A DNA stretch of 57,949 bases from a virus (IMGVR_UViG_3300043580_000084:1-57949), one strand, 5' to 3'. Numbered from the stretch's first letter, positions 9,241-57,689 are shown. Notes: generated by a model not told the origin, from the letters alone. Made by a program: numbers and translations.

Positions 9241-9245
9241 TGCAG

Positions 9246-9330
9246 TGTCAAAGGGGGGACTCGAACCCCCACACTCCGTGTGGAGTACCAGCACCTCAAG
9301 CTGGCGCGTCTACCGTTCCGCCACTCTGAC
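9246..9330 (-). tRNA. tRNA-Leu(GAG)
   Basis: Cloverleaf with long variable arm; ccagc-ttGAGgt-gctgg; GTTCGAG T loop. Confidence 0.9.
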
Positions 9331-9527: not shown

Positions 9528-9601
9528 TGGTGCCCAGCCGTGGAGTTGAACCACGTCTTGTGCTTTTTGAGAGCCACCGTGCATGCCTACACCAACCGGG
9601 C
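9528..9601 (-). tRNA. atypical tRNA-like gene, loop ctCAAaa, bulged anticodon stem, encoded CCA
   Basis: Acceptor gcccggt/gctgggc-ACCA; T arm cgtgg-ttcaact-ccacg; short variable loop. Confidence 0.7.
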
Positions 9602-14133: not shown

Positions 14134-16724
14134 TGGTCGACCCGAACCCTGCTCGTGGAATGCCCGCAGCTTTGCAGCGTTACTGGCTGGTCGGAAAAGG
14201 TGCGGCAAAAATCCGCTGGCATATGCCCCACGATTTTGACCGTTGCGTAAGGAACCTGCGGAAGTACTTTCCAAAGAACCCGCAAGGACTATGTAACATC
14301 CTGCACCAGAAGGCAGTCGGCGCCCCTCCTGGCAAAGGTCACGGGCACAGCCTCACCGCCTCCATGGTCACTAGTGACGACCCCAAGTACCTGATCGCGG
14401 CCCAGGCCCTGATCGACAAGCAGCCAGAGCTGGGTCGCTACACCTGGGCCAGTCCCATGGCCCCCATCGGCCTGCCCACCGGGGAGCCCCGCAGGATCCG
14501 GGTGTTCGAGCCCAACTCCCTGACTACCCGGACCATGCCCCGGCCCCTGGACTGGCGCAAGGAGCAGGCGCAGGGTCACACCGGAGGCATCACTGTGGGC
14601 CGGATGCTCGGCTTCGGAGTGGGCCCCGACCACACCGGCCAGGACTGGGCCTACTCCTGGGGCGACTTCCTCAACGAGGACATCGTCCCCGAGGCGAAGC
14701 GTGCCCGGTATCTGGTGACAATGGGCGTCGCCGGTCCCAGCCTGGACCCGGGGGGGGCGGTCCATGTGGGCATCAACCCCGAGACCGGCGTGGAGCACTA
14801 CAACCAGTTCGTGGTGGGTGGCTCGACCCTGGTCTCCATCCCGGCCTACGCGGAACTGGGCATGCACGTGTTCGACGGGGACCAGGACTGGGATGACGAC
14901 GACGACGACATGCCCTGGTCCATGATCGATGACGACGAGGACTGCGGCTGCTCCGAAGCCAAGGCCATCACCGCCTCGATCAACTCCCACGGGTGGAAGG
15001 GCAAGCCCCTGGCCGTCCGGGAGACCGTCTTCGACAACGACGACGCGGTCAAGCGGATCACCGCCTGGGCCAATGGGGACGCCAGCAAGATGTCCGAGGC
15101 GTTCCTGTACCACGACGACCGGGGCAATCCCCTGGACTCCACCTCGTACCGCATGCCCATCGGCGACATCATTAACGGGAAGCTGACCCTCATCTTCCAT
15201 GCCATCTATGCGGCGGCGGCCCTGCTGTCCGGCGCCCATGGTGGCCTGCCCAACGTTCCGGAGAAAGACATCGAGGGTGCCCGGAACGTCATCTCAGAGA
15301 TTTACGCGATCATGGCCCGGGAGTTCGGAGACAACAACATCCGAGCCCCCTGGGACCGGTCCGGTGCACCGGGAGTACAGCTGAGCATGGACAGCTACGC
15401 CGCCACAGAGCCCTACGGGGATGTCAACTACGCCGACCCTGGCTACCGCGACAGCAAGAAGCGGTACCCGATCGACACCCCTGAACACATCCGGGCCGCC
15501 TGGTCCTACATCAACCAACAGCAGAACGCCGGGCAGTACACCCCGGATCAGTTGAAGCAGATCAAGGCGCGGATTGTGGCTGCCGCCAAGAAGGCTGGCG
15601 TCCAGATCTCGGAGGACAGCATGAGCATGACCTACCCGGTGAACCCGCCGAAGTCCTGGTTCGAGAACCCGCAGCTAGCCGGAAAAACGAAGCTCACGGT
15701 TACTGACGAGGGTCACGTGTTCGGTCACCTCGCGGCCTGGAATGAATGCCATCGCGACGTCACCAATCGGGAATGTGTCATGGCTCCTCGGTCCCGCAAC
15801 GGGTACGACCCGTTCCACCTCGGGACTGTGGTCACCAAGGAGGGGGACACTCTTAACGTCGGTAAGATCATCATGGACACCCGGCACGCGGCGATCAACC
15901 TGGGCTACACGGCGACGGCGATTCACTACGACAACACCGGCGACGAGGTCGCCGTCATCCGATGCGGGGAAGACGACTTTGGCATCTGGTTCTCCGGTTC
16001 GATCGTTCCTGAAGCCACACCGCAGAAGGTAGCGAAGCTGCGCCGCTCCCCGTTGTCAGGGGACTGGCGCCGCGAACGTGGCGCCCTGGAACTCACCGCC
16101 GCTCTGGCCGTCAACGCCCCCGCGTTCCCCATCTACAGCATGGACAACGACGAAGTCCAGGCCCTCACCGCCGCTGGCTCCGTCTGGTTCAGTGACTTTG
16201 ACACGGCCCCGTACCAGCCCCCGCCGACCGGCATCGTTATGGACGCCATCAAGCGGGAGGTGGCACTGCACTTCGCCGCCACCGAGGAGCCGAAGCCGGA
16301 CACCAGTCGGGACGAGCTGGCCGCCCGACTCAAAGACCTGGAGGAAGACGAGGAGATCTATGCCCAGCGACAGCGAGCCGAACGTCTCCAGCACATGTTC
16401 TCCATGGACGCGGGCCCTCTACCAGGAGCTGCTCCAGCTCCAGCTACTGGTGTGCCAGCGCCTGTACCCGGAGCGCCCGCCCCGGCTCCCGCGAATGGTG
16501 CCCCTGTCGACCCTGTACCTGGAGGAGCACCGGGAGAGTCTGCTACTGATGCGGCAGGCATGGATGTCGACGCCTGGAACATCGCGGCCCAAGCCTCCGC
16601 CCGCTACCGGGTAGTCCGGGACCTGCGAGACAAGTCCGCGGGGTCCGCTGACGCCGCCAACCCGGCCACCCCTGACACCCCTGCCCCTGCCGGTCCGCCA
16701 CCCACTGCACCACCAACCTACTAA
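14133..16724 (+). CDS. multidomain capsid maturation protease fusion
   Basis: PLDW..GHTGGITVG..GPSLD protease-like region; YADPGY..RYPIDTPEHIRAAW (DUF6582-like); GHVFGHLAAW..LSGDWR domain. Confidence 0.7.
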   Translation: MVDPNPARGMPAALQRYWLVGKGAAKIRWHMPHDFDRCVRNLRKYFPKNPQGLCNILHQKAVGAPPGKGHGHSLTASMVTSDDPKYLIAAQALIDKQPELGRYTWASPMAPIGLPTGEPRRIRVFEPNSLTTRTMPRPLDWRKEQAQGHTGGITVGRMLGFGVGPDHTGQDWAYSWGDFLNEDIVPEAKRARYLVTMGVAGPSLDPGGAVHVGINPETGVEHYNQFVVGGSTLVSIPAYAELGMHVFDGDQDWDDDDDDMPWSMIDDDEDCGCSEAKAITASINSHGWKGKPLAVRETVFDNDDAVKRITAWANGDASKMSEAFLYHDDRGNPLDSTSYRMPIGDIINGKLTLIFHAIYAAAALLSGAHGGLPNVPEKDIEGARNVISEIYAIMAREFGDNNIRAPWDRSGAPGVQLSMDSYAATEPYGDVNYADPGYRDSKKRYPIDTPEHIRAAWSYINQQQNAGQYTPDQLKQIKARIVAAAKKAGVQISEDSMSMTYPVNPPKSWFENPQLAGKTKLTVTDEGHVFGHLAAWNECHRDVTNRECVMAPRSRNGYDPFHLGTVVTKEGDTLNVGKIIMDTRHAAINLGYTATAIHYDNTGDEVAVIRCGEDDFGIWFSGSIVPEATPQKVAKLRRSPLSGDWRRERGALELTAALAVNAPAFPIYSMDNDEVQALTAAGSVWFSDFDTAPYQPPPTGIVMDAIKREVALHFAATEEPKPDTSRDELAARLKDLEEDEEIYAQRQRAERLQHMFSMDAGPLPGAAPAPATGVPAPVPGAPAPAPANGAPVDPVPGGAPGESATDAAGMDVDAWNIAAQASARYRVVRDLRDKSAGSADAANPATPDTPAPAGPPPTAPPTY

Positions 16725-16733
16725 GGACTGACT

Positions 16734-19700
16734 GTGGCTGGAATCGGATCCGCATGGGGTTCGCGGGAGGAAATGCTCCACCCGCGTGACCGGCATGGGC
16801 GCTTCCGCAAGAAGTGGAAGATGGCCGCTGGGGTTGTCGATGCCCTGTCCAAGTTCCTGGACAGGTTCCAGCCACACTCCTTCCAGTCCGATCAGCAGGC
16901 GTCGCAGTACGCGTTCAACCGTCGCAAGGCCCCGTGGTCCACCCCCGAGTTGCAGCGTCTGCACATGGACTGGGACGAGGCCAATGGAGCCCTCCAGGCC
17001 GGGAAGATGGACCCGACCACCAAGCGGTTCACCCAAATGATGGACCGCAACATGGTGGAGACCACCGACGACCTGATCGTGTCCCAGACCGTTCCCACGG
17101 AAGCCTTTGGTCTCAGTCCGCAGCAAGCAGCTATGGAAGACGGTGGCCTGGAAGACCTCATCGGTCTGGAGATCGCCGACGCTGGATACAGCGCCACCAG
17201 CCTGGGGTCCGAGCTGTCCCACCCGCCCGGCTCGGTCACGTTGCGGGTGGCTGTCCCCAAGGGAACCCGGGTCGCCTACGGGGGCCGTAGTCCTAACGAT
17301 CGAGCCGTCATCTTCGACCGGGACCAGCCCCTTGTCGTCACCAAGGTGGAGTCGGACGGGCGTGGTGGCTGGTACATGCTGGCCATTGCCGGCAGTGGCG
17401 CCCGCACCAAGGGTGCGGCCGCTGTCGCCGACGACCGCACCCACGGCACCCGTGGCGCTGCCCTCACCCCGGAGCAGCGGGAAGCTCGGATATCCCCGCA
17501 GATGTCCGGGGAGTCCCGGCTCAAGATCGCCCAGCGGGAGCAGCAGCAGAATGAGGCTGCTACTCTGCGTCACCAGCGGGAGGTTCAAGGAACTCCGCCA
17601 CCGCCCCATGAGACGCCAGTCCCTGGCCCCGCCCCAGCCCCGGCTCCCGCCACTCCTGCTTCGCCGCAGACATCCGCCCCCCCAGCGGCCGGTGTTCCCG
17701 AGCGGCGGGAGCCGGTTCACTCCAACGCAGTTGGCCCTGGCAGTCCCGAGGGACGCTCTGCTTCCGAAGTTGCCCAGATGGGTGAGGAAGCTAGGGCCAC
17801 CGCGGCGAAGGAGGCCGCCACTCCAGCGGCACCGACGCCGCCCACGCCACTGGAGTTCCAGGAGGCGGCCCGGGGCCTGTCTGTGCCCACCGCCGGCAAG
17901 CAGCGCTCGGAATGGAACAAGGCCCACAGCGACCTGTCCCGAGGCAAGCGGGACCCCGGTGATGTGCTGCGGGAACTCGACACGGACATCGAGGAGAACA
18001 AGCGGCAGGCGGCCAGTGCCGACCATGCCGAGAAGAAAGACACTCTGGACCGCAACATCCAGGCCCAGGAGCAGTTGGCTGACCTGATCGCCGAGAAGTA
18101 TGGGTTGCAGCGCCAGGGTCGGGAGGCTAAAGGGACAGGTGATGGCACCAGCCCTACACCGACCCCGGCTGCCAAGAAGGCTCCCAGAGTCGCGCCAGGG
18201 GCGCCATCCACCAAGCGGGAAGCCACACCCAAGGCCCCGGCCCCCCGCAGTGGGAAAGGTCGCAAGCCTGCCGACATCGCCGCCGATATCCAGGCCGCCA
18301 AGGCCCGCGAGGAAGCAGACGCACACCTGGAAGGGATGACCGGGGCCGAGCTGAAGGCCCTGGCCGACCACATGGAGGCCCCGGTCCGGGCCCGTGCCAC
18401 CAAGGCAGAACTCCGTAAGGCCATCGTGTTCCGCAAGGGCCGGGAGCTGGATTCGGACGCTATCAGTGGCCACGGCAAGGCCCGCCGTGACGCCGAGGCT
18501 GCCAAGGCAGCCAAGGCAGCGGAGAAGGCTGTCCCCGAAGCCCCAGCGGCTCCGGCCAAGAAGGTAGCCGGTCCAGACCGGACCGGCGAGATGTCTTCGT
18601 TGCGAAGCTTTGCTGAACGAGAGCGTGCCAAGAAGGCTGCCCCCGCCAAGGCCGCACCGTCCCCTGTGGACGATGCCGAAGAGGCCTTCAAGGCTCGGGT
18701 CGCTGAGGCTGGACTCCCGGACAAGGTCGCTGACCTTCGGGCCCAGGCACGGGAGAAGAAGATCCGCGGCTTCTCCACCATGAACAAGCGCCAGCTTCAG
18801 TCGGCGCTGCTCGGCGACGAGGTTCCCAAAGCCGGGAAGATCGCCCCGGTCAGTCCGAAGAAGATGATCCCGCACCTGGAGGCAGCAGAGTCGGACCAGG
18901 AGGCCCGCAAGCTGCTGGAGAACCACACCCTGGCCGACCTCAAGGCCCTGGCTGAGGCACGGGAACTGGAACTCCCGAAGCGGGGAGTCACCAAGGATAA
19001 AGTCAAAGACGCCGTCCTGGCCGACATCCGTGGCGTGCCTGGAGGTGCCGGTGGCGAGACCCCGGCCCGGAGTCTGCGCCAGGAACTGAGTGCCCAGAAG
19101 TGGGTAGCGCCAGAGAACCCTGCCGCCGCCAGCAAGGTTCAAGGCATCATCGACGACACCGATGAGATGGACGCAGCCGAGCTGCGTGGGTCCCGCGACG
19201 ACCTGGAGAAGTACTCCAAGGAGCTGCGGGCCGATGGCAACCGTCAGGACGCCAACCTGGTACAGACCTTGGCCGACACCATGGGCATGCGGGCTCAGGT
19301 CATCTCCGGCGTGGAGGAGGGCCCCGCTCGGGCCCCAGCCAAGCGGGCCGCCAAGAAGGCTGTCCCCGCCGTGCCCGAAGGTGAGGCCCCGCCGAAGACC
19401 CTGGACAAGATGCTCCGTACCGAGCTGGCCAAGGTTGCCGCCGACGAAGGTGTTGACGTCAAGAAGTCGGCCACCAAGGCGCAGTTGAAAGAGGCCATCG
19501 AACGGCACCGTCGCGCCGGTGGGCGGGAGAGCAGTGAGGATCGCCTGCGCCAGGAGTTGGAGGCTGTCCCGGTCGAGGCGCCCACGCCGGTCAAGAAGGC
19601 TGCCCCCGCTGCGGTAGTTCCGGACCGGGCACCGACGCCGGAGGAGATCGCCCGGGACGCTGCCCCCACGGCACCGCCAGCCAAGCGGGCCAAGGCCCGT

Positions 19701-22700
19701 GCCCTCAAGCGGGTCCCGGAAGGCTCCGTCGAAGGTCCTCGCGCTGCTGAGAAGCTCGACAGCGAGCCACGCAAGTCTGCGTTCCAGGAAGCCTGGGACG
19801 GGGAAGGGTTCGCCGACGATCCGTCTCTTACTGAGATCCGGGATGACATCGCCTCCGGGAAGATCAGCCAGGAAGAGGGCGTACGCCGCATCCAGTCCGA
19901 GGTCTCCTTCAATGAGGAGGAGATCAGCGACCTGGGCGCCCAGCTTGAAGGCATGGCCCCGGAGGACCGGGACGAGGAGAGTGGCGTCGCCGATGCTATC
20001 CATGCCCGGCGAGCCGAAGTACAGGACAAGATCACCAGCCAGAAGAAGGCAGCCAAGTTCCTGCGGGACCATGCTCGCGACGAAGCCCCGGTCACCCGTC
20101 AGGAGCTGGAGGTCAAGCTCGACGGCCCCGAGAAGGCAGCCCTGGACCGGGTCGACGTCGACTCCCTGAAGGAAGCCGCGCGCCAGGAAGGGCTCGGCAA
20201 CATCGAGGGTGACGACAAAGACACTCTCATCCAGAACATCGCCAAGGCGATAGCAGGTCGGGAGCTGGCCAACCAGGAGAAGGAGCGGACCGCCCGGGAC
20301 CGGCAGGCCCGGATCGGCGAGTCAGGCAAAGTCGCTGAGGCACTGTCCAACCTGGACCAGATGGCCCAGAACGATGGCAGTGACAAGGCTCTTCAGGCTG
20401 GTATCCGACGCCTTCCCGCTGCCGACCGGGAGCGATTGACCAAGGCTCTTGGTGACCGGGACCAGTTCCGCCGGGAGCTGGACAGCATCACTAAGAGCAG
20501 GGACCTGTCCCGGTTCGGGACTGTGGGGGAGACCGTTCCCTACGACCCGCAGAAACATGACGTTGTTGGGGACGTAGCCCCCGGGTCGCCAGTGCTCATC
20601 ACCCGAGCTGGCCACGACTCGCACCTGGGTGGCGGGGACCGGGTCACCTTCAAGGCCCGTGCCATCCCAGACGAGGGGACGAAGATCCCGGCCAAGGCAC
20701 CTGAGGCCCCGGCCGCACCAGCCAAGAAGGCTGCCAAGTTCCTGCCCCCACTGGCCAGTGGGCAGGAACGTAAGAGCGCTACCAACGTTGAGGTTGGGGA
20801 CATCGTTCAACGGGCTGGGGCCCGGAACGCTCCCCCAGCCCGAGTGGTCAAGGTGGAGCGAGGCCCCGGTGGCATCGACATCACCTTGGAAGACGGTAGG
20901 AAGTACAACAACAACCCCAACACTGCCTACTGGATGGGCAGCGGTACCCCTGAGGCCCCGAGCGCCCCCTCTCGGGCAAGCCGGGTTAAGGCGTCTACCC
21001 CACGGGCACAGGAAGTCTTCGACCGCCTCGATGACAACGAGAACCCGCCCACCACAGAAGAAGCGGAAGCTCTTCTCGCTCCCCTAAACAAGGGGGAACT
21101 GGTTTCACTGGCCAGGGGTGTCAGTCTGCCCAACCCAGGCAGCCGGAACATGGCTGACCTCCGGGCCTCCGTCATCGAGGCGACCAGTGGGCGTCGCCGA
21201 GACTCTATTGCCACTCGCAACTTCACCGGGGAACGCCCCGGTGAAGGAGGGCTACCGGTACGTCCCTTTGAGCAGAGTGCCCTTGAATCACCGCCAGTCA
21301 AAAGAGTCTTGGCCAAAGCCGCTGTTCCCGCCAAAGCCGCCCCGAAGCCAGTGGTGGACCTGGACAACCCGACCAAGCACGACGCCGAAGTCATCGGCAC
21401 CGGGCTGGGCCTGGACGCCAAGGGCGAGGACAAGCAGTGGCTGGCCGTGGTTCAGAAGGATCTGGACAATGGTGTCGACGGTCGGCAGATCGCCGATGGT
21501 CTGCGTCGTGGCGCCGACTCCGAGCGGACCCTGCACAACATCGAAGCTGAGTCTGGTGGTGGCACCCCGGACACGGGCCGGGCTGCTCGCATCAACCGCA
21601 TGGAGCTGATGGCGGACCGCCTGGAAGGTGTCCGTCCCATCCCCAAGCCGGAACCGGCTAAGAAGACCGTTGCCCAGCAGGTGCGTCACTTCGACACCAT
21701 GCGGGCACAGTCGGCTTCCTCCAAGGCCCAGGCTGACCTCAAGGCTGGGAAGTCACACACCGAGGTGGCCACAGCATTGCGACAGGCGGCCACCAGTGTG
21801 GGCAGCCGGGACCATGACCCGCAGTTGACCAGCCGAGTCGGGGACCCCACCCCGTCCGAGATGAGTGCCATCAAGCGATCCGACGCTCGTTCCCTGCGGG
21901 AGCTGGCCGACGAGATCAAGGCTGAGGGTGTAGCCCAGCGGGCGGAGGCGCGGGCTACCAAGAAGGCCCGGCCCTCGGTGACTGACGACGCGGTCGCCAC
22001 CTTGCTCATGGACAGGATCGCGGAACGGGACCCTGCCGTAGCCAAGGCAGTGCTGGCTGAGATCTCCCCAGCGGATCGCAAGGAGCTGGATGCGGCCCGG
22101 GAACGTGACACTGCCCGGAAGGCAGCAAGGGCGGCTGTCCCCAAGAAGCGCACCGCCGCCGAGATGCGCCGGGCACGGAGCGCCTCCGAGTCTGAAGGTG
22201 TGCCGGTCGACGAGATCCTGGCCCGCTGGGACGGGCAGAAGCAGGACCGGAAGAACCTGACCGGGCCTGTGGGCGAGATGATCGCGGCCCAGATTGAGGA
22301 CGCGAACCAGGCCCTCCTGGCGGCGGACACCCCGGCCCTGGAAAGCGAGGCCACGGGTCGACTCCTGCATCCGGAGCTACGGACCTGGGCCACCAAGCTG
22401 GGGCTGTCCCCCAGCGGGACAAAGGCCCAGTTGGAGAAGCGGATCGCGGACAGAATCAAGGGGCGTGAGGCACCTGGTGCCAGTGCGGAGCGTGCTGTCC
22501 CAAAAGCACCGGGGGGAATGACTGACCAGCCCCCCAAGCCACACAGTTGGGGAACGTTCGGACAGCGTGGAGACCAGCACTACTTCCATCCGGACGGGCA
22601 GATCCCCATGGCCATGAAACGCCTGGGTCCCGAGGGTCAGCTCGACGTGGGCGATGGCGAATCCCTGCACAACGCCATGGGCGACATCGCCTCCGACATG

Positions 22701-23180
22701 GTCATGGGCAGGATCAGTGGAGATACCGGGGTGGCTCGACTCCGGGCACTCGCTACCAAACTCCAGGCGGGGTCGGGGGCCAGGAACATGGTGGCCAGGC
22801 TGGCTGATGAGCTGGACCAGCCAGCGGTAGCGATGCCTAGGCTCCCCGACGACACCCCAGCCCCGGTGCGGCGGTTGCTGCAACAGGTCATGACGTTCCC
22901 GATCGCCAGGGCCACCGGACACTTCGGTTCCTCCACCTACGAGAAGTCTCTGGTGGACAAGATCGCCGACTTTGTCCGAGAGAAGGCCTCTGGTGAATCC
23001 AGCATCGTGGGGATGAACGATGGCCTGGCTCGGTTGATCACGAACCACACGCACGAGAGCCAGGAAGGGTCCATGGGTCTGCGGGCTCTGACTCAGCCAC
23101 TATTCAAGGACGATAGCGAGATCTCCCAGGCCCTCCTAGCCTGGGCCAAAGAGATCAGGGCCAGACGAAGGAGCACATGA
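16734..23180 (+). CDS. 2148-aa head-module protein with degenerate ADP-ribosyltransferase-like domain and HeH/SAP/Rho-N-like repeats
   Basis: HPRDRHGRF N-terminal motif; GYSATS..LRVAVPKGT; repeated LxxLA..GxK..L..I helix pairs; Ala/Pro/Lys-rich linkers. Confidence 0.75.
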   Translation: MAGIGSAWGSREEMLHPRDRHGRFRKKWKMAAGVVDALSKFLDRFQPHSFQSDQQASQYAFNRRKAPWSTPELQRLHMDWDEANGALQAGKMDPTTKRFTQMMDRNMVETTDDLIVSQTVPTEAFGLSPQQAAMEDGGLEDLIGLEIADAGYSATSLGSELSHPPGSVTLRVAVPKGTRVAYGGRSPNDRAVIFDRDQPLVVTKVESDGRGGWYMLAIAGSGARTKGAAAVADDRTHGTRGAALTPEQREARISPQMSGESRLKIAQREQQQNEAATLRHQREVQGTPPPPHETPVPGPAPAPAPATPASPQTSAPPAAGVPERREPVHSNAVGPGSPEGRSASEVAQMGEEARATAAKEAATPAAPTPPTPLEFQEAARGLSVPTAGKQRSEWNKAHSDLSRGKRDPGDVLRELDTDIEENKRQAASADHAEKKDTLDRNIQAQEQLADLIAEKYGLQRQGREAKGTGDGTSPTPTPAAKKAPRVAPGAPSTKREATPKAPAPRSGKGRKPADIAADIQAAKAREEADAHLEGMTGAELKALADHMEAPVRARATKAELRKAIVFRKGRELDSDAISGHGKARRDAEAAKAAKAAEKAVPEAPAAPAKKVAGPDRTGEMSSLRSFAERERAKKAAPAKAAPSPVDDAEEAFKARVAEAGLPDKVADLRAQAREKKIRGFSTMNKRQLQSALLGDEVPKAGKIAPVSPKKMIPHLEAAESDQEARKLLENHTLADLKALAEARELELPKRGVTKDKVKDAVLADIRGVPGGAGGETPARSLRQELSAQKWVAPENPAAASKVQGIIDDTDEMDAAELRGSRDDLEKYSKELRADGNRQDANLVQTLADTMGMRAQVISGVEEGPARAPAKRAAKKAVPAVPEGEAPPKTLDKMLRTELAKVAADEGVDVKKSATKAQLKEAIERHRRAGGRESSEDRLRQELEAVPVEAPTPVKKAAPAAVVPDRAPTPEEIARDAAPTAPPAKRAKARALKRVPEGSVEGPRAAEKLDSEPRKSAFQEAWDGEGFADDPSLTEIRDDIASGKISQEEGVRRIQSEVSFNEEEISDLGAQLEGMAPEDRDEESGVADAIHARRAEVQDKITSQKKAAKFLRDHARDEAPVTRQELEVKLDGPEKAALDRVDVDSLKEAARQEGLGNIEGDDKDTLIQNIAKAIAGRELANQEKERTARDRQARIGESGKVAEALSNLDQMAQNDGSDKALQAGIRRLPAADRERLTKALGDRDQFRRELDSITKSRDLSRFGTVGETVPYDPQKHDVVGDVAPGSPVLITRAGHDSHLGGGDRVTFKARAIPDEGTKIPAKAPEAPAAPAKKAAKFLPPLASGQERKSATNVEVGDIVQRAGARNAPPARVVKVERGPGGIDITLEDGRKYNNNPNTAYWMGSGTPEAPSAPSRASRVKASTPRAQEVFDRLDDNENPPTTEEAEALLAPLNKGELVSLARGVSLPNPGSRNMADLRASVIEATSGRRRDSIATRNFTGERPGEGGLPVRPFEQSALESPPVKRVLAKAAVPAKAAPKPVVDLDNPTKHDAEVIGTGLGLDAKGEDKQWLAVVQKDLDNGVDGRQIADGLRRGADSERTLHNIEAESGGGTPDTGRAARINRMELMADRLEGVRPIPKPEPAKKTVAQQVRHFDTMRAQSASSKAQADLKAGKSHTEVATALRQAATSVGSRDHDPQLTSRVGDPTPSEMSAIKRSDARSLRELADEIKAEGVAQRAEARATKKARPSVTDDAVATLLMDRIAERDPAVAKAVLAEISPADRKELDAARERDTARKAARAAVPKKRTAAEMRRARSASESEGVPVDEILARWDGQKQDRKNLTGPVGEMIAAQIEDANQALLAADTPALESEATGRLLHPELRTWATKLGLSPSGTKAQLEKRIADRIKGREAPGASAERAVPKAPGGMTDQPPKPHSWGTFGQRGDQHYFHPDGQIPMAMKRLGPEGQLDVGDGESLHNAMGDIASDMVMGRISGDTGVARLRALATKLQAGSGARNMVARLADELDQPAVAMPRLPDDTPAPVRRLLQQVMTFPIARATGHFGSSTYEKSLVDKIADFVREKASGESSIVGMNDGLARLITNHTHESQEGSMGLRALTQPLFKDDSEISQALLAWAKEIRARRRST

Positions 23181-38923: not shown

Positions 38924-39140
38924 ATCCACCAGGTGTAATGGCGACACCTGTGTCGAGATTGCGTTCCGCAAATCCACTAGGTCTGGGCCCTGGACTGACA
39001 ACTGCGTCGAGGTGGCCAACCGTGACTACGGCGTACAGGTCCGAGACAGCAAGGATCCCCAGGGACCGGTCCTGAGCTTCACTCATGCCGAGTGGGATGC
39101 ATTCCTCGCCGGTGCCCGCGATGGTGAGTTCGACCTGTGA
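38904..39140 (+). CDS. DUF397 protein
   Basis: WIRSTRC..CVEIA-FRKSTRS..NCVEVA..VRDSKDP.GPVL.F...W.AF. Confidence 0.9.
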   Translation: MSDNWIRSTRCNGDTCVEIAFRKSTRSGPWTDNCVEVANRDYGVQVRDSKDPQGPVLSFTHAEWDAFLAGARDGEFDL

Positions 39141-39958
39141 CACGGATTGCTGTGACAGGCGGTGGCGGCTTCCTCGGGGCCGCCACCATTCGCATCGCCG
39201 AGCTACAGGGACACGAGGCATGGCGCTTCGACCGGTCTGACGGGAATGATGTCCTCGGGGACCTACGCGGCCTCGACGGTGCGGATGTGGTCATTCATAT
39301 GGCCGGGATGCTGGGGACAGATGAACTCTTCGACACTGCCGAAGAGGCTGTCGAGGCGAACGTGGTGGGGACGCTTCGAGTTCTCGAATGGTGCAAGAAG
39401 CATGATGCCGGATTCGTGGGCATCACGATGCCGGACTCCTCCTGGGCCAACGTCTATCAGGCCACCAAGCTCTGTGCCCTGAGGCTGGCCACAGCCTGGC
39501 ACCGCAACTTCGGGGTGCCCGTGTCCCACGTCCGGGCCTTCAACGCCTATGGACCAGGTCAGAAGTGGGGGCCGGGACATCCGCAGAAGTTCATTCCCAC
39601 CTGGTCCACGCAGGCCTGGCGCGGGGAGCCGTTGACCATCTGGGGCTCCGGCAACCAGACCGTGGACGCCGTGTACGTGGACGACGTGGCTCTGATGCTG
39701 GTGGACGCCTGCGTATTCGGGGACGACGAGATTCTCGACGCCGGCACTGGCCAGGCGGTGACAGTTAATCAGATCGCCCTGGCGGTCAACCGGTTCGCCG
39801 GCAACACGGCCGGGATCGTGCACCTACCCATGCGCCGTGGGGAGGCGCCGGACACGCACATTGTGGCGAGGGGAGAAGGATGGGAAATGGTGGGGTGGCA
39901 TCCCGAATTCAGCTGGGACAAGATTCGCCAGACGGTGGAGTGGTACAAGCCTGCCTAG
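39137..39958 (+). CDS. NAD-dependent epimerase/dehydratase
   Basis: TGGGGFLG, YQATK, RAFNAYGPGQ, GSGNQ. Confidence 0.9.
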   Translation: MTRIAVTGGGGFLGAATIRIAELQGHEAWRFDRSDGNDVLGDLRGLDGADVVIHMAGMLGTDELFDTAEEAVEANVVGTLRVLEWCKKHDAGFVGITMPDSSWANVYQATKLCALRLATAWHRNFGVPVSHVRAFNAYGPGQKWGPGHPQKFIPTWSTQAWRGEPLTIWGSGNQTVDAVYVDDVALMLVDACVFGDDEILDAGTGQAVTVNQIALAVNRFAGNTAGIVHLPMRRGEAPDTHIVARGEGWEMVGWHPEFSWDKIRQTVEWYKPA

Positions 39959-44272: not shown

Positions 44273-44401
44273 GTGGCCACACCCCGTAGGTCACTCGGAC
44301 CAGCCAGCGGTGGCATTCCTTGAAGGCCCCCGGGAACCCGGTGACCAGATAGCGCACTGTGTTCATGGAACCTCCCTTCGTTGTCCGGCCGCGCGGCCTC
44401 G

Positions 44402-44471
44402 TGGATCGTGTCGGATTCGAACCGACATCCCCGGCCTAAACGCCGGACTCTGCCAATTAAGCTAGCGACCC
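44402..44471 (-). tRNA. atypical tRNA-like gene with 6-nt anticodon loop (gtttag)
   Basis: TAGCTTAATTGGCAGAG D arm; ccggc/gccgg stem; GTCGGTTCGAATCCGAC T arm. Confidence 0.75.
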
Positions 44472-44536
44472 AGGCGGTCCGTTTGAGGACCCTCGGACCA
44501 AGGGCACATGGACCTCGGTAAACCGAGGCTCCCTCG

Positions 44537-44608
44537 TGGCGGGATCCGGATTCGAACCGGAATCGACCGGGTTATGAGCCCGGGGAGTTGCCGTTACTCC
44601 ATCCCGCA
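44537..44608 (-). tRNA. tRNA-Met(CAT), initiator-like
   Basis: ccggg-ctCATaa-cccgg (three GC pairs); 1:72 mismatch. Confidence 0.88.
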
Positions 44609-44710
44609 CCGGCCAGAACCAGGAGACGACGGGGGAAGCTCCTGGTTCTGGCACTCATGAGTTCACTAGCCAACAACACTTGCCGGTCGTCGCTGGTCGT
44701 AGGTCCCTCG

Positions 44711-44765
44711 TGGCTGTTCAGGACTCGAACCTGGACCTGGGTGCACCCGGTCTTCCATTCAGCCG
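44711..44765 (-). ncRNA. mini tRNA-like RNA lacking a D arm and normal anticodon arm
   Basis: ggctg/cagcc acceptor-like stem; cagg-ttcgagt-cctg T arm; same 3' trailer as neighbouring tRNAs. Confidence 0.55.
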
Positions 44766-44840
44766 TGACTCCCCCAGGTTTTGTGTGACCAGCCCCTGGG
44801 GGAGCTTTCCTCCAGCCCTCTCAAACCTGAGGGTAGCTAC

Positions 44841-44869
44841 AGCCTAACTCCCCGGGGCCGGGGAGTCAA
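44841..44869 (-). promoter_or_regulatory. promoter TTGACT-17-TAGGCT for the tRNA cluster
   Basis: Hexamers; palindromic actccccgg..ccggggagt spacer. Confidence 0.8.
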
Positions 44870-45200
44870 CAGCATCGAGCCGTGCCTTGTGTAGCTCCGT
44901 GTAGTCCCCGGACGCGCTCTTGCACTTGCTCCCCGGCGGCTGCTCACAGCGCGGACAGGACAGCATCAGAGCCTTGGTCTTGCGATCCGCGCGAGGTCGG
45001 GCACCCCGAAACACAATGGGGTCCTCGTCATCCTCGTGCACCTCGTGCTCGTTGATGATGTCGGCCGCGATCAGGTCCTGCACCCGCTGCCGGTCCTTCT
45101 CATAGTCCAAGCGTGTCTTGCCCGGAGCAGGGAAGTACCACCCGTAGTTGGGACAGGCCCGAGGTAGGTGCCCGAGGATCCCACAGTTGTTGCACCTCAG
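44844..45200 (-). CDS. zinc-knuckle plus zinc-finger protein (start uncertain, possibly CTG)
   Basis: CNNCGILGHLPRAC (CX2CX4HX4C) and CPRCEQPPGSKC..H..R. Confidence 0.7.
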   Translation of the reverse strand: MRCNNCGILGHLPRACPNYGWYFPAPGKTRLDYEKDRQRVQDLIAADIINEHEVHEDDEDPIVFRGARPRADRKTKALMLSCPRCEQPPGSKCKSASGDYTELHKARLDAVDSPAPGS

Positions 45201-45433
45201 GAGCGGCGCTTGCGGCGAAGCTGGTCGCGGGTCAGGAACCCTTGAACTACCAACTGGGGTAGTGAACCCACGTGGTACAGCTCCTGCACCGTGTCCTTGG
45301 TCTCGGGGCAGATGTAGGCCGGCTTGCGGGGATGGTGCCGGCGCCCCACCTTCTTGGCTCGTGACTTGTCTGTGTACCACCACTTCTGGCATGTCTCACA
45401 CCACCCGATGGGATCTGTGTCGGTTTTGTTCAT
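45197..45433 (-). CDS. small Cys/His protein
   Basis: WCETCQK..AYICP..YHVG. Confidence 0.7.
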   Translation of the reverse strand: MNKTDTDPIGWCETCQKWWYTDKSRAKKVGRRHHPRKPAYICPETKDTVQELYHVGSLPQLVVQGFLTRDQLRRKRRS

Positions 45434-50838: not shown

Positions 50839-51195
50839 TCAGGTGGGGTTGGTTTCACGGAGGAAGGTCTCCTCGAATGCGTCGGCGATCTGGTTGAAGT
50901 CCAGTTTGCAGATGTCGTTGGCCGCGACTGCATCCCGGCACGGAGCTGGGCGAATGATCGGGTTGCCGCTCTCGAAGCCGTACCACTGAGCCAGCCTCCA
51001 GTGCAGGGCAGTCCCGCCCCAGGCCTCAAGACACATGGCCCCGTTGCGCAGGGCCACCTCGGTGGCGACCCCGAGGCAGCAGTAACTGACACCACCACCA
51101 TGGGCATTGCCCCTCAGGTCGCCATGACGCTGCTGAAACTCCCCGCTCCGCAAAGCATCGACGAGCAGCTGGACTCGTTCCTTGTTGACGGTCAC
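50839..51195 (-). CDS. ALRSG/CCLGV family protein, paralog A
   Basis: ALRSGEFQQ..YCCLGVA..AND..DFNQIAD. Confidence 0.75.
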   Translation of the reverse strand: MTVNKERVQLLVDALRSGEFQQRHGDLRGNAHGGGVSYCCLGVATEVALRNGAMCLEAWGGTALHWRLAQWYGFESGNPIIRPAPCRDAVAANDICKLDFNQIADAFEETFLRETNPT

Positions 51196-51548
51196 TGGCG
51201 TGCCCCCACGTTGCCCGAGGCCTGGATGAGGGCCATCACGCTGTCCCTGCTGACGTAGGGCGTCTGCCCTATGAGCAGCTGCGGAAGCCGCAGCAGCGGC
51301 AGGTTCAGGATCTGCCGCATCAGCATCGCGTCCTTGGCCACGACCACGTTACGCAGCCGCCCCAGGAACACGTCCGCTGACTTCAAGGCGACCTCGGCTG
51401 AGATCTCCTGAAGCTCGGCGACAACAGCGCGGCTCTCGGCGATACCAAGAGCCGCCAGGTCTTCACCCAAGGTGACGAGACGCTGTGCGCTCACACCTAC
51501 CGAGGGTCCGGCCTGGAGCGACCGGATCTGTAGCTCGTCACTACTCAT
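51192..51548 (-). CDS. hypothetical protein
   Basis: AAGGAG RBS; first gene after promoter. Confidence 0.65.
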   Translation of the reverse strand: MSSDELQIRSLQAGPSVGVSAQRLVTLGEDLAALGIAESRAVVAELQEISAEVALKSADVFLGRLRNVVVAKDAMLMRQILNLPLLRLPQLLIGQTPYVSRDSVMALIQASGNVGARQ

Positions 51549-53071: not shown

Positions 53072-53072
53072 G

Positions 53073-53147
53073 ACCCCTCGGGGAGATTCGAACTCCCAGC
53101 CACCGCGTTTTAGAGACGGGTTGCTCTGCCAGTTGAGCTACGAGGAG
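53073..53147 (-). tRNA. tRNA with CTA (amber-reading) anticodon and extended bulged anticodon stem
   Basis: ctcctcg/cgagggg acceptor; TAGCTCAACTGGCAGAGC D arm; acccgt-ctCTAaa-acgcggt; gggag-ttcgaat-ctccc. Confidence 0.8.
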
Positions 53148-54103: not shown

Positions 54104-54400
54104 TCACTTATTGAAGTTGACCCGTGGCCGTCCACGGGTGACCTTCGCCCGGATCAGGACCTCCATGCCCAGGGTCTCGGCCCAGCTCTTCAGCGTGGAC
54201 AGTTGGATGTCCCCTTCCCCGCTCTCCAGCTGACTGACCCGGGCTGGGCCGCTGTAGCCCATCCGCCGAGCCACGTCCCACTGATTCCAGCCGCGAGCCA
54301 GTCGCTCCTTCCTCAGCGCCTGGATGATCGGGTCCAGTTCCTCGGTGCTCTCCTCGTCTTCGACCTCTTCGGTCACCTCGACGACGTCTTCAGTTTCCAT
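54104..54400 (-). CDS. XRE-family HTH regulator
   Basis: LRKERLARGWNQWDVARRMG..VSQLESG..TLKSWAETLG; GGAGG RBS. Confidence 0.85.
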   Translation of the reverse strand: METEDVVEVTEEVEDEESTEELDPIIQALRKERLARGWNQWDVARRMGYSGPARVSQLESGEGDIQLSTLKSWAETLGMEVLIRAKVTRGRPRVNFNK

Positions 54401-54741
54401 AGTTCCTCCTTCAAACTGGCGACCTCCGCCAGAGCTTGAGCCAGAGCCTCTCGGAGTTCGGGGGTGCCGTCCAAGCCGAGTCGGTTGTCTGGTGACTGCA
54501 CCCAGAGACCCTGGGGGCAGGGGACGATGTGCAGGGTGGTCTTGCGCCACCAGGCGGCACTGCGCAGCTTCTTGATGATGGCCTCGTCGGAGACCAGGGG
54601 CGGGAAGTGAAGCCCTCTGGTTACCAGGTGCAGGTGACCGTCGAACAGACTGTTCAGGTAGAACTTGGACAGTCGCCAGTGGCTGAGCAGCATCCCGTTC
54701 CACATGGGCTGACCGTCGAACGGGTTGTCCGGCTCGGTCAC
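54373..54741 (-). CDS. hypothetical protein
   Basis: GGAGG RBS, GTGA overlap. Confidence 0.55.
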   Translation of the reverse strand: MTEPDNPFDGQPMWNGMLLSHWRLSKFYLNSLFDGHLHLVTRGLHFPPLVSDEAIIKKLRSAAWWRKTTLHIVPCPQGLWVQSPDNRLGLDGTPELREALAQALAEVASLKEELWKLKTSSR

Positions 54742-55295
54742 GCCGCCACCTCCTCCTGGTCCCCGGTCAGGTAGTGCCAGATCCGGTCCAGGTTGGCCTG
54801 GACGAGGCCCTGGGTCGGGTTGGGCGCCACCAGTAGGGCACCGGCGTTGCGGAACAGCCGCCGCTCGTCCTTGCTCATGTCCGGGTGGCAGGCGTCGTCG
54901 TCGGTCCAGATGAGGTTGCCCCCACTGTCCCGTAGCGCCCGCTGTGCTCCTGGCAGCTTCCACCAGCCCCGGGCGCCTTTCGTCCAGCCCTCGTACTCGG
55001 GGGCTGGGAGCACATCGAACGGGTGCAGGCCCACGGCCTCACCCACCTTGTTCGACTCGTCGGCCCAGGTGCTGTGCCACAGGACCGTAGCCAGACCTTC
55101 GTCGTCGATCCGGTTGATGAACTCCACCACCGGGCGCGCGGTCAGGATCGGCCACGCCCTGTCACTGTGTCGGTTGAAGATCTCCAAGTCCATCCAGGCG
55201 TCTCGGGGCCAGGCGTTGGGCAACGGGTCCCGGTTGCGTGGACAGGCGTTGATGACGCCGTCGATGTCCAGCAGCCAGATTGCTGTACTACTCAT
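54738..55295 (-). CDS. HAD-superfamily phosphatase (RNA-repair 'Swiss army knife' type)
   Basis: LLDIDGVIN, VLWHSTW, WWK, LIWTDDD, P..GL. Confidence 0.8.
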   Translation of the reverse strand: MSSTAIWLLDIDGVINACPRNRDPLPNAWPRDAWMDLEIFNRHSDRAWPILTARPVVEFINRIDDEGLATVLWHSTWADESNKVGEAVGLHPFDVLPAPEYEGWTKGARGWWKLPGAQRALRDSGGNLIWTDDDACHPDMSKDERRLFRNAGALLVAPNPTQGLVQANLDRIWHYLTGDQEEVAA

Positions 55296-55587
55296 CTCGT
55301 TTCACCTCCTCGTACTCTTTCTCCAGCTTCCATTCCAGCTCCCCCATCGTGTTTCTGATCTTGGGCCAGATCTCCGGTGTGAAGGTTATATCGAAGATCA
55401 CCGCTTCGTCGTCGCCGTACACAATCTCCATATACAGCTCCGGCTCCGCGGACTCCAGCACCAGCGAATGACCCAGCCGCAGCTTGAAGTCCCCCGACTC
55501 CCGCAGCCGGCGCACCAGCCACCGGATCGCGCGGATCTCCAGGCGAGGTTTCTCTTCCTCGCTGCGATCCACGATCCGCCACGTCAC
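55288..55587 (-). CDS. hypothetical protein
   Basis: Operon position. Confidence 0.6.
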   Translation of the reverse strand: MTWRIVDRSEEEKPRLEIRAIRWLVRRLRESGDFKLRLGHSLVLESAEPELYMEIVYGDDEAVIFDITFTPEIWPKIRNTMGELEWKLEKEYEEVKRDE

Positions 55588-55700
55588 AGGGTGACCAGGT
55601 AGATGCAGATGGCCAGGAAGAGGGCTAACCCCACTACCCCGAACAGCTGGACCATGGCCTCCCAGATGATCGTGGGGCGGTCCCAGAAGTGCTGTTTCAC
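55584..55700 (-). CDS. small membrane peptide
   Basis: Single TM; overlap with next gene. Confidence 0.5.
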   Translation of the reverse strand: MKQHFWDRPTIIWEAMVQLFGVVGLALFLAICIYLVTL

Positions 55701-55753
55701 CAATTCTTGTCCTCTCCTTCGTGGAGGTCCTTCAGGTACTGGACCTCTTCCTC

Positions 55754-56062
55754 CTACTCGGCGAGCTGACGGTGCAAGTCCGCGACCTCCTCATTGAGGA
55801 ACGCGACCTGGTCCCGTAGTTCCTTGACCTTGTCGCCCTGTTCCGCGATGGTGACCCGCTGCCGGACGATGATCCCGGCCTGCTGGTTCAGCTCCTGGTT
55901 CTGCTGTTCAATCTGGTCCTGCTGGGCCCGGATGAAGTGGGCCAGGCGCTGTATATCCGAGCGGGGGTCGTCCCCGGTGCAGGTGCAGCCCATGGGGAGC
56001 CCGGCGTCGCAGTAGCCGCAGAGCTTCAGCCACTTCTCGGCGATCGCATCAAGATCAATCAT
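55754..56062 (-). CDS. Cys-motif plus coiled-coil protein
   Basis: CGYCD...CTC then heptads. Confidence 0.65.
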   Translation of the reverse strand: MIDLDAIAEKWLKLCGYCDAGLPMGCTCTGDDPRSDIQRLAHFIRAQQDQIEQQNQELNQQAGIIVRQRVTIAEQGDKVKELRDQVAFLNEEVADLHRQLAE

Positions 56063-56306
56063 CGACCCTCACCAGGTCCTCCGGTTTCATCCCGAATACC
56101 TTCCACAGCGGCATCATCGAATCAGGCGTTAGCCGGGTGTAACGGATCACGCTCATGGTGCCGTCTTCGAAGTAGCTGTAGATCTGATAGACGTCGCCGT
56201 CTCCGCCACTGGCCAGCCGGTACTGGACATCTGGGGGGTGACTCCTAGCCAGGTCCTTGATGACCTGTGGCCGGTCGCGTAGCCACTCCTCCAGCTCCTT
56301 GTTCAT
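56055..56306 (-). CDS. hypothetical protein
   Basis: Coupled to the RNA ligase gene. Confidence 0.65.
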   Translation of the reverse strand: MNKELEEWLRDRPQVIKDLARSHPPDVQYRLASGGDGDVYQIYSYFEDGTMSVIRYTRLTPDSMMPLWKVFGMKPEDLVRVDD

Positions 56307-56932
56307 GCCTGGAAGTCCTTTGCTTTGATCTTGACGATTAGGCGGTGACCCGACCGGTCCAGTAGTCCGGCGGCGGTCACACCGACCACCCCTTCGGCCA
56401 CCAGGGTCGGATTCCAGGTCGACCGGAGGTCACCTTTTACCCGCTCAATGGCGGCTGGGATGGAGCCTGAGAGCACCAGGGGCACGTGGTCCAGCCCCAG
56501 GCTCTCTGCGACGTCCAGGCTGTCGTCCCGCAGCAGCCACCAGTCCCCGATGCGCACGTCGAACAGGACGTACGACATATCCGGACGGTAGTTGCCACCT
56601 TTCTGGATGCCGGCCCCATAGCCTTCGCCGTACAAGGTGACCGGCCGCTCGTTGAACTTCTGCTCGAACAGCTCCTCGGGCAGCAACTGATCCAGGGCCT
56701 GGATGAGCTTGGCCGGGATCTGGGCGTTGTCGGTGCGGCCCCCGTAGATGACCTTGTGACCATCCCAGTGGACCCGGATGTTTGTCCCGTCAACCTTCTC
56801 AGTCCAGTACCAGTTCAGCCCTGCTGTTACCTCTAGCGCGGGCGAGGACCAGGCACCTTCGATGAGCTTGTTGCGGTTCGGCCCCTCTGTCTCTCGGAGG
56901 AAGGGCCCAGGGCTCTTCTGAAATTCCTTCAC
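56303..56932 (-). CDS. ATP-dependent RNA ligase (Rnl2-like nucleotidyltransferase domain)
   Basis: TEKVDGTN (I), LYGEGYG (III), VLFDV (IIIa), AEGVV (IV), IVKIK (V). Confidence 0.88.
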   Translation of the reverse strand: MKEFQKSPGPFLRETEGPNRNKLIEGAWSSPALEVTAGLNWYWTEKVDGTNIRVHWDGHKVIYGGRTDNAQIPAKLIQALDQLLPEELFEQKFNERPVTLYGEGYGAGIQKGGNYRPDMSYVLFDVRIGDWWLLRDDSLDVAESLGLDHVPLVLSGSIPAAIERVKGDLRSTWNPTLVAEGVVGVTAAGLLDRSGHRLIVKIKAKDFQA

Positions 56933-56993
56933 CCCCTGACCCTACCCCCCACCCCTCCCCCGGGTCAATCCCTATCTTTTCTCGGTTTCTTGG
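56912..56993 (-). repeat. 82-bp inverted repeat, copy B (promoter plus leaderless start of the RNA ligase)
   Basis: Exact reverse complement of 1-82. Confidence 0.95.
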
Positions 56994-57125: not shown

Positions 57126-57488
57126 TCAAGAACCTGGCACTCCGTGGATCTTGTCCTCCAGTTCCTCCAGTTCCCTGACCAGGGCAGCCCTCTGATCCGT
57201 GCTAGACCCTGCGTCAGGGTCTGCTTGCACAGAGTGAGGTTTCAGGAGTCCGTAGATGGCCGTCAACCTGTCCAGCACCCTGATCCCGGCCTCGATGTAG
57301 CGAGGATCACGACGGAACCCCAGCTCCACAGACTCTTGATCAGGGTTGATGTGCGGTTCACAGGCCCGCCACACCTGTTCCAGGCGCTGCACCACCAGGG
57401 CCCGGACGTAGGGCCCGGAGTCGGCCACGTGCTCCTCGTTGATCCCGGCCTCACCGGGGACCATGACACCCGGTTCCAGTTGTTCCAT
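57126..57488 (-). CDS. putative terminase-small-subunit-like protein
   Basis: QRLEQVW..DPRYIEAGIRVLDRLTAIYGL resembles phage TerS-like helical motifs. Confidence 0.45.
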   Translation of the reverse strand: MEQLEPGVMVPGEAGINEEHVADSGPYVRALVVQRLEQVWRACEPHINPDQESVELGFRRDPRYIEAGIRVLDRLTAIYGLLKPHSVQADPDAGSSTDQRAALVRELEELEDKIHGVPGS

Positions 57489-57689
57489 GGCGTCAGGGTG
57501 CGCGTGGCAAAGATGCATATCAACATGCACTCCAACTACTGACAGGTTCCTTAACAGTAACCAGGCACACAGGCTCCAGGATCTTGGCAGCCTCCGCCAA
57601 CGTATCGAAACAGAGTCATGTGACCAGAGGCGATCCGGACCAGGGACCAGACTATGCTGAGCCTGGACCTGGTCCATGATCAAGAAACC

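Follow-up and report, generated by a model that had tools for sequence, protein, structure and literature searches.

A minimal RNA ligase, a HAD phosphatase and atypical tRNA genes in a soil actinophage: probably separately acquired early genes

Do an RNA ligase gene and a phosphatase gene lying in the same phage operon, in a genome which also encodes oddly shaped tRNAs, make up a system for RNA repair? There is a classical precedent, as T4 Pnkp and Rnl1 repair PrrC-cut tRNA-Lys. The question is raised here by the record IMGVR_UViG_3300043580_000084, a whole IMG/VR virus entry of 57,949 bases (the window; completeness estimate 91%, G+C content ~63%), which is the nearly complete genome, ~58 kb, of a soil actinophage. 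A stand-alone ATP-dependent RNA ligase and a HAD-superfamily phosphatase are encoded in one leftward operon, ~1 kb apart, with two small conserved open reading frames (ORFs) in between, and tRNA genes reside at other sites. In sister phages the ligase is swapped out while the phosphatase and the tRNAs stay, and the co-occurrence of the two enzymes is low elsewhere; we therefore lean towards seeing the three as accessory early genes, probably gained and lost separately, and not as a machine inherited as a whole.

The ligase and the phosphatase

The ligase gene (56303-56932, minus strand) starts with GTG and encodes 209 residues. The product matches the Pfam family RNA_ligase (PF09414; 52.5 bits, cut-off 27, E 8.4e-14) and PHROG 548, annotated as RNA ligase (E 6.7e-19). 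Residues K46, R66, E103, G104, F124, D125, E180, G181, K201 and K203 are invariant in 21 sequences, the ligase itself and 20 homologues from viral contigs. Motif I reads EKVDGTN (pattern KxDGxN), its lysine being K46, and the further nucleotidyltransferase motifs are conserved as well. The AlphaFold model has a mean predicted local distance difference test (pLDDT) score of 92.8. Foldseek places it closest to NgrRnl (6vt9) and to the nucleotidyltransferase domain of T4 Rnl2 (1s68/2hvr), at E ~2e-9, template modelling score over the query (TMq) 0.68-0.73 and 18-20% identity. RNA ligases rank at the top of the 98 PDB chains found at E<=0.001, DNA ligases lower; a sequence search of the PDB gave weak rows only (PAB1020, E 0.064).

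The protein is a nucleotidyltransferase domain alone, of the Rnl2/Rnl5 kind. Since motif I is preceded by ~40 residues and the chain stops 6 residues past motif V, there is room neither for the C-terminal helical domain of the Rnl2 family nor for the OB-like N-terminal module of Rnl5 (~126 residues), and neither is found in the 209 residues. The score over the target (TMt) is 0.65 to 1s68, which we take to be the isolated N-terminal domain of Rnl2, against 0.42-0.50 to the full-length Rnl2 chains 2hvr/2hvq (317-319 residues); it is only 0.41-0.44 to NgrRnl, because the nucleotidyltransferase half alone aligns. The ligase belongs to a large family, with at least 4,683 clusters (E<=1e-10) and members of ~210 residues, some of them annotated as RNA ligases in Streptomyces phages, crAss-like phages and Lak phages. 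Nine longer forms were found, six with an intein/LAGLIDADG, one combining PF09414 and PF09511, two with PF09414 only, and none of the nine is fused to a kinase or a phosphatase. The intein-bearing (Hint/LAGLIDADG) minimal ligases (P0074, P0077-P0081) measure 559-572 residues. No paper on the minimal form or its biochemistry was found by title or abstract.

The ligase is the first gene after a promoter-like site, TTGACC-N18-TAGGGT (56968-56939). The site is part of an 82-nt repeat unit (56912-56993, minus strand) which also includes the first 21 nt of the ligase ORF, and which has an exact inverted copy at 1-82 (plus strand; positions 1-82 are the reverse complement of 56912-56993), ahead of gene 97-783. 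Two matches of this unit were obtained in none of 100 shuffled sequences. The GTG of the ligase sits 6 nt past the -10 element, and the transcript looks leaderless.

The phosphatase (54738-55295, minus strand; 185 residues) is a cap-less member of the HAD superfamily, close to the SAK-HAD clade. Among 31 sequences D10, D12, D132 and D133 are invariant, and T76 and K113 are conserved in at least 90%; these residues correspond to the four catalytic motifs (DxD, S/T, K, DD). The match to the Pfam family HAD_SAK_2 (PF18143) scores 19.6 bits, below the 27.5 threshold, and the same family is carried, according to precomputed annotation, by 16 of 73 homologues, all of which are stand-alone proteins of ~170-300 residues. 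The model (pLDDT 88.2) has a HAD fold without cap domain. The 50 entries shown by VIA-align (Z 9.3-7.2, 120-153 residues aligned) are all named as HAD-superfamily phosphatases or HAD-like domains; the best are the SCP1-like, CTDNEP1, MDP-1 and Lem4 phosphatases (Z 9.3-8.6), the phosphatase domain of T4 Pnkp ranking lower (Z 7.3). Foldseek gave a weak match (MDP-1, E 2.5e-3), and the PDB sequence search only chance rows of picornavirus VP2. By its modelled fold the enzyme is thus a phosphatase, probably for a large substrate, which the fold does not specify further.

The small ORFs of the operon all lie on the minus strand. The product of orf99 (55288-55587), which overlaps the start of the phosphatase gene by 8 nt, has no assigned function and no usable Protein Atlas match. 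The product of orf102 (55754-56062) has a Cys-rich N-terminus and a coiled coil, and a protein 88% identical is found in locus L035. Next to the ligase, orf83 (56055-56306) belongs to no family, having no Pfam, PHROG or Protein Atlas match; a homologue lies upstream of the ligase in locus L146, an arrangement other than that of the window. In locus L147 the arrangement differs again, as the ligase is followed by an orf102-like ORF, with no HAD gene in the next 1.36 kb. No polynucleotide kinase was detected by Pfam over 50 ORFs, and a six-frame search with AAA_33 hits only the P-loop of the D5 helicase (14.3 bits).

A first-pass annotation of this DNA had described a minimal Rnl2-like ligase as first gene behind a duplicated promoter, and noted that no polynucleotide kinase was recognizable. 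Both statements hold, the former by PF09414, PHROG 548, fold and the 82-nt repeat. It had also called the phosphatase an RNA-repair-type HAD; fold and residues are those of a HAD enzyme, and the RNA-repair label depends on the sub-threshold HAD_SAK_2 match.

A replaceable ligase cassette

A genome retrieved through the phosphatase (G001; IMG/VR, 59,229 bp, 94% complete) is collinear with the window and ~90% identical to it, nucleotide identity ranging over 75-94% per block, mostly 82-94%. The repeat region with the promoter is conserved at 1202-1266, orf102 is 88%, orf99 94%, the phosphatase 85% and the downstream regulator gene 87% identical at the protein level, and all five tRNAs called by ARAGORN in the window are present. 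Positions 56063-56928 of the window, corresponding to orf83 and the ligase, are swapped in G001 for an unrelated stretch of 333 bp encoding a 97-residue ORF, and the flanks align up to the promoter on one side and to orf102 on the other. No ligase was found in G001 at E<=1, nor any PF09414 match.

The same replacement is seen in two further sets of contigs, from public runs; the 16 runs listed include no RNA data set. In X5, position 56062 is joined to 56929 via 333 different letters; in X6, contigs end at both junctions, and their loose ends match the G001 insert. Both sets retain the phosphatase, the adjacent small ORFs and the amber-anticodon tRNA and lack the ligase cassette. Since both may be of the G001 lineage, they count only in part as evidence independent of G001. 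Pieces at least 99% identical to the window inside both ligase and orf83 were recovered from run X3. The ligase is hence a replaceable cassette, in a slot just behind a conserved promoter. As G001, X5 and X6 keep the phosphatase and the CTA tRNA without the ligase, phosphatase and tRNAs do not depend on it, and genes for healing and sealing are not inherited together.

The two enzymes rarely meet in other genomes. The phosphatase profile (A3), with G001 as positive control, was found in one of 31 ligase-bearing IMG/VR records (G003), and PF18143 in the same single record. Conversely, PF09414 was found in none of five phosphatase-bearing viral records. By tblastn, the phosphatase is missing within 10 kb on either side in all 32 viral ligase loci and present in one of 80 metagenome ligase loci, and no ligase was found in 64 bacterial loci carrying the phosphatase. 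A tie of SAK-type HADs to RNA-repair genes is not seen in these counts, the exceptions being G003 and a 4.1-kb contig of a more distant relative, L145. The co-occurrence of ligase, phosphatase and atypical tRNAs across related phages, which the first-pass annotation had put forward as a check, thus mostly fails. In G003 (L045) the HAD homologue (1504-1986) has, in the aligned frame, a TAG directly upstream of motif I, which may simply mark a later start codon.

The partners found beside each enzyme are of other kinds. In the 64 bacterial loci the phosphatase gene is adjoined by a gene for a dgt-like HD phosphohydrolase in at least 10 and by dnaG in at least 9, both lower bounds, as the ORF caller recovered the HAD ORF in 40 of the 64. 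In Arthrobacter phages the homologue lies among replication and early genes, in RadFad with NrdH, SSB and a helicase. When 661 ORFs from 32 ligase loci were clustered by blastp, no protein-coding neighbour was common to different lineages; an ORF starts just downstream of the ligase in 24 of the 32 loci, and these ORFs are mutually unrelated, near-identical loci excepted. The ligase would usually operate without a phage kinase, because AAA_33 was found in only 5 of the 31 ligase-bearing records; among the eight that are at least 90% complete it was found in none.

The association of the ligase with tRNA genes is closer. Of the 32 viral loci, 13 hold a tRNA gene, and in 11 the nearest one is at most 1 kb from the ligase; of the 80 metagenome loci, 18 hold a tRNA, the nearest being at most 1 kb away in 15. 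Among 13 lineage representatives, chosen by eye from 31 tRNA-holding loci, many of them near-duplicates, a tRNA is found at this distance in eight, where random placement inside each locus would give 4.93 (P=0.026). In the two records inspected among Streptomyces phages and crAss-like phages, neither HAD nor tRNA genes lie beside the ligase.

tRNA genes, promoter-like sites and other genes

Five tRNA genes, all on the minus strand, were called by ARAGORN. Rfam (RF00005, threshold 29 bits) recovers four when run over the window at full length and the fifth when run over a short range, the scores being 53.4, 52.0, 43.9, 37.5 and 30.9 bits. Only two of the five feature the canonical anticodon stem of 5 bp and loop of 7 nt; two have bulged stems, one a 6-nt loop. 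A canonical class II tRNA-Leu(GAG) (9245-9330; 53.4 bits) is close to a CAA tRNA (9528-9601; 30.9 bits) with a short variable arm, a bulged G in the 5' strand of the anticodon stem and an encoded CCA. The CTA (amber) tRNA (53072-53147; 43.9 bits) has a bulged C in the 3' strand of the stem and no encoded CCA. It is 100% identical in G001 over 96 nt, the surrounding block being 93.9% identical, and 80.5% identical to tRNA-Arg(cct) of Bixzunavirus mycobacteriophages.

The remaining genes are clustered. The tRNA-Met(CAT) at 44536-44608 (52 bits) features a 1:72 mismatch, A11:U24 and three G-C pairs by the loop, which we take to be marks of an initiator tRNA. A different, elongator-like CAT tRNA, with many paired stem changes, occupies the same site in G001 (12853-12925), which suggests that tRNA genes are also swapped as cassettes. 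The gene at 44401-44471 (37.5 bits; folding z -2.86) has the 6-nt anticodon loop GTTTAG. Its anticodon arm is identical in G001, where the three changes seen are confined to the D loop and a mismatched acceptor position. TTA is one of several readings of the 6-nt loop, and the CTA tRNA is the only clear reader of a stop codon. The element at 44705-44775 (minus strand) is a remnant with a short acceptor, a hairpin and a T arm with the T-loop motif, but no D arm. It has no Rfam tRNA match; its 3' part aligns with an element of G001 (12600-12750), of which it looks like a truncated version. The first-pass annotation had counted six tRNA-like genes, four with distorted anticodon arms and two nominally reading stop codons. 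Odd tRNAs do exist, yet the tally becomes five genes and one remnant, three distorted arms and one clear stop reader.

The G001 element (12600-12750, locus L040; Rfam 37.4 bits) is tRNA-like, with the anticodon arm replaced by a 93-nt insert. A similar element of L145 (3399-3514; 42.7 bits), at the site of the CTA tRNA of the window, has a 57-nt insert at the same place. Acceptor, D and T arms are normal in both, and the minimum free energy folds of the inserts are single long arms. The folding energies are not unusual (z -1.35 and -0.85), and no splice motif is recognizable. IMG/VR was scanned for exact copies of the odd anticodon arms. The 16-mer was found at 30 loci, 29 of which are terminator-like hairpins and the other is G001, and the 17-mer in G001 only, so that no wider set is available for covariation analysis. 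With introns allowed, ARAGORN made 44-49 calls per genome, of which nearly all are spurious; among them a 'tRNA-Tyr with intron' (44710-44874) was rejected, as it spans a promoter and the end of the zinc-knuckle ORF.

The standard code leaves all 67 listed ORFs open, with 37 TGA, 21 TAG and 9 TAA stops. None of the ORFs requires recoding of amber or ochre codons, which was rejected; as TAG ends 21 of 67 ORFs, an efficient amber suppressor would cause read-through, and not the decoding of a reassigned codon. No literature was found on suppressor tRNAs in actinophages. Recoding was rejected also at the in-frame pair 14133-16724 and 16734-23180, the stop, the ribosome-binding site and the start between them being of the ordinary kind and conserved in G001 as well. 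The second ORF of the pair, in the head-gene region, encodes 2,148 residues with a SAP domain near the C-terminus and is preceded by an 863-residue DUF6582 protein, both unusually large for that position.

Six sites of the type TTGAC-N17/18-TAnnnT, with G+C-rich, CCCCGGGG-rich spacers, were identified in the window. They precede the ligase, gene 97-783, gene 899-1732, the CTA tRNA (site at 53243-53214), gene 51192-51548 and the tRNA cluster at 44.4-44.8 kb, the last site (44869-44841) overlapping the 3' end of the zinc-knuckle ORF. A homologous site lies ahead of the ligase in L145. Related promoters had been noted by the first-pass annotation, and they are indeed shared by the ligase, the CTA tRNA and the tRNA cluster. 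Yet they are also found ahead of other genes, and are therefore the general promoter type of the phage; they do not define a ligase-tRNA regulon.

Run X1 includes a 56,889-nt contig with 30 nt of the 82-nt repeat at each end, and a separate 1,038-nt contig spans 56912-57949, with a flush end at 57949. Since the contigs break at the repeat, the left end of the record is an assembly break. The inverted repeats bracket a 956-bp segment which holds ORF 57126-57683 (minus strand); read depth in run X1 is 28.5 for the small segment and 23.3 for the remainder. The arrangement at the repeat may reflect a circular genome, longer inverted ends, or inversion of the 956-bp segment.

The rest of the genome consists of a long rightward structural block, encoding terminase, portal and MuF-like proteins, and of small early genes in a leftward block between ~57.7 and 44.2 kb. 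The genome also encodes RusA, a PD-(D/E)XK nuclease and a primase-polymerase/D5 helicase. Megablast of the region against GenBank phages gave zero matches, hence no close DNA relative among these. HAD homologues are present in Micromonospora, Catellatospora, Hamadaea and related actinomycetes, and judging from these the host is probably Micromonosporaceae-like. Downstream of the phosphatase lies an Xre-type helix-turn-helix regulator (54104-54703, minus strand; PF01381, E 2.8e-8; PHROG 1373), whose domain covers residues 126-186 and whose true start may be further inside the ORF. The zinc-knuckle protein reported by the first-pass annotation is borne out as a phage zinc-binding protein (44844-45392, minus strand; PF24623, 27.1 bits against 24; zf-CCHC_6, 22 against 22). 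A gene for a NAD-dependent epimerase/dehydratase (39137-39958; PF01370, E 2.8e-30) lies within the late region.

Possible roles and relation to known systems

If ligase, phosphatase and tRNAs are separate accessory genes, the leftward early operon would start at a conserved phage-type promoter with a variable slot directly behind, filled by the ligase and the 83-residue ORF here and by the unrelated 97-residue ORF in sister phages. The phosphatase would belong to the conserved part of the operon, the tRNAs to three other sites served by the same general promoter type. The ligase probably joins 3'-OH/5'-phosphate ends at breaks in structured RNA, whether tRNA or other; it would become adenylylated on K46, and nicked tRNAs would be its most plausible substrates. 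A phage kinase would be unnecessary if breaks already had such ends, or if host enzymes healed them. The phosphatase would remove a phosphomonoester from a large substrate, such as the 3'-phosphate of RNA or DNA, a nucleotide or a phosphoprotein. The tRNAs would supplement or replace those of the host, the three with altered arms being perhaps resistant, decoys or decaying copies.

Several observations weigh against this reading. In L145 promoter, ligase (76%), orf99, phosphatase (61%) and helix-turn-helix gene are consecutive. In G003 (40% G+C) the phosphatase lies ~15 kb from the ligase, and a Pnk-like kinase is also encoded. In Logan, homologues of ligase (69%) and phosphatase (64%) each occur on one contig only; both contigs measure 63,757 nt and are probably identical. 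A facultative pairing of the two enzymes for healing and sealing is thus possible in part of the clade, if rather unlikely. The adjacency of ligase and tRNA genes is above chance, a result suggestive, not strong, given a modest statistic and representatives picked by eye; in the window the ligase lies 3.2 kb from the nearest tRNA. Lastly, a nucleotidyltransferase domain devoid of any extra domain may be a poor sealer of nicks. The title of PMC1807946 indicates that the N-terminal module of DraRnl matters for both sealing and adenylylation.

The system envisaged by the first-pass annotation, in which the phosphatase removes 3'-phosphates, the ligase seals, and replacement or decoy tRNAs complete the response to a host anticodon nuclease, appears rather unlikely. 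Its parts exist, they share an operon (1 kb apart, adjacent in L145), both families occur in G003 and probably on the 63,757-nt contig, members of the ligase family lie near tRNA genes, and the phosphatase domain of T4 Pnkp matches the HAD model (Z 7.3). The idea itself is in print, since section 3.4.9 of PMC7824862 counts stand-alone SAK-HADs and RNA ligases among the RNA-repair components of phages and proposes that they counter host attack on tRNA. But inheritance separates the three parts. G001, X5 and X6 lack the ligase despite having phosphatase and CTA tRNA, with all five tRNAs kept in G001, and co-occurrence amounts to 1/31, 0/5 and 0/64. In bacteria, homologues of the phosphatase adjoin dgt-like HD or dnaG genes (9-10 of 64), and in Arthrobacter phages they lie in replication modules, in neither case beside a ligase; protein phosphatases match its structure better than Pnkp does; moreover, no 5'-kinase was found in the phage. 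The first-pass annotation had alternatively suggested that the odd tRNAs are cut and rejoined by the ligase into mature forms, a pathway which the anticodon-arm inserts of 57 and 93 nt in the relatives recall, all the more as L145 also has the ligase. G001 contradicts it, having an insert element and the same bulged tRNAs yet no ligase; the inserts fold as one long arm with unremarkable energy and no splice motif, the window keeps only a truncated remnant, and no endonuclease partner was identified. Maturation by cutting and religation is scarcely credible for this locus.

It is also unlikely that neither enzyme acts on tRNA, the phosphatase dephosphorylating nucleotides or proteins in early or replicative functions and the ligase sealing RNA-containing nicks or other RNAs. 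The contexts of the phosphatase, dgt and dnaG in bacteria and NrdH, SSB and helicase in RadFad, and its protein-phosphatase-like structural matches would suit such roles, as would the ligases of crAss-like and Streptomyces phages, which have no tRNA nearby, and the 3.2 kb that separate ligase and tRNA here. Opposed to this are the ligases that adjoin tRNA genes in about eight lineages and the 16 of 73 phosphatase homologues assigned to the SAK family. Decidedly unlikely, in our view, is a joint reading according to which the clade keeps a flexible set of genes for tRNA warfare, made up of tRNA-like RNAs with altered arms and of the minimal ligase as a one-enzyme nick sealer. Bulges, 6-nt loop and inserts of 57-93 nt would then denote nuclease-resistant substitutes or baits, and the ligase would seal 3'-OH/5'-phosphate breaks, for example those made by PIN/VapC-type tRNases. 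These metal-dependent enzymes leave 3'-OH/5'-phosphate ends. Sealing of such ready ends by one enzyme would explain why most ligase-bearing phages have no kinase.

Separate gain and loss remains the reading that we prefer. Ligase and phosphatase are both real enzymes of known kinds, and the separate inheritance of the three parts is what the analysis adds; a common operon is not enough to turn genes into a system. The locus mainly illustrates how such genes travel, as single promoter-proximal cassettes. If the ligase proved a self-sufficient sealer of tRNA nicks, it would be a counter-defence enzyme very common in phages and so far uncharacterized, and no smaller RNA ligase would be known. The tRNA-like genes of the relatives with replaced anticodon arms are the least explained item.

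Among known systems, the T4 Pnkp and Rnl1 repair of PrrC-cut tRNA-Lys, named in PMC2610378, is comparable in that a phage ligase and a HAD-type phosphatase could in principle heal and seal a broken tRNA; the phage described here differs in having no kinase, a ligase outside the Rnl1 family, and genes which are not co-inherited. The 'Swiss-army-knife' HADs of jumbo phages, as presented in the relevant section of PMC7824862, are likewise small stand-alone phage proteins, and 16 of the 73 homologues carry PF18143; in contrast, the HAD of the window falls below the Pfam threshold, belongs to a family unlinked to ligases in our counts, and does not come from a jumbo phage. Altered anticodon loops have been proposed to let phage tRNAs escape the tRNases of the host (PMC10264068). 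The tRNAs discussed there are, as those found here, actinophage tRNAs with non-canonical anticodon arms, but stem bulges and a 6-nt loop take here the place of loop substitutions, and one anticodon is amber. The ligase shares the nucleotidyltransferase fold, the Pfam family, the motif I lysine and the other catalytic motifs with T4 Rnl2, NgrRnl and DraRnl; unlike T4 Rnl2 and Rnl5, it has, by sequence and model, neither the C-terminal domain of the former nor the N-terminal module of the latter. Its closest counterparts are members of the same family, ~210-240 residues long, in Streptomyces phages (BillNye, Circinus gp196), crAss-like phages (cr116_1, IAS virus) and Lak phages. These belong to other phage groups with other hosts, yet are 31-37% identical over 87-100% of the ligase, and stand alone, as it does, among small early ORFs.

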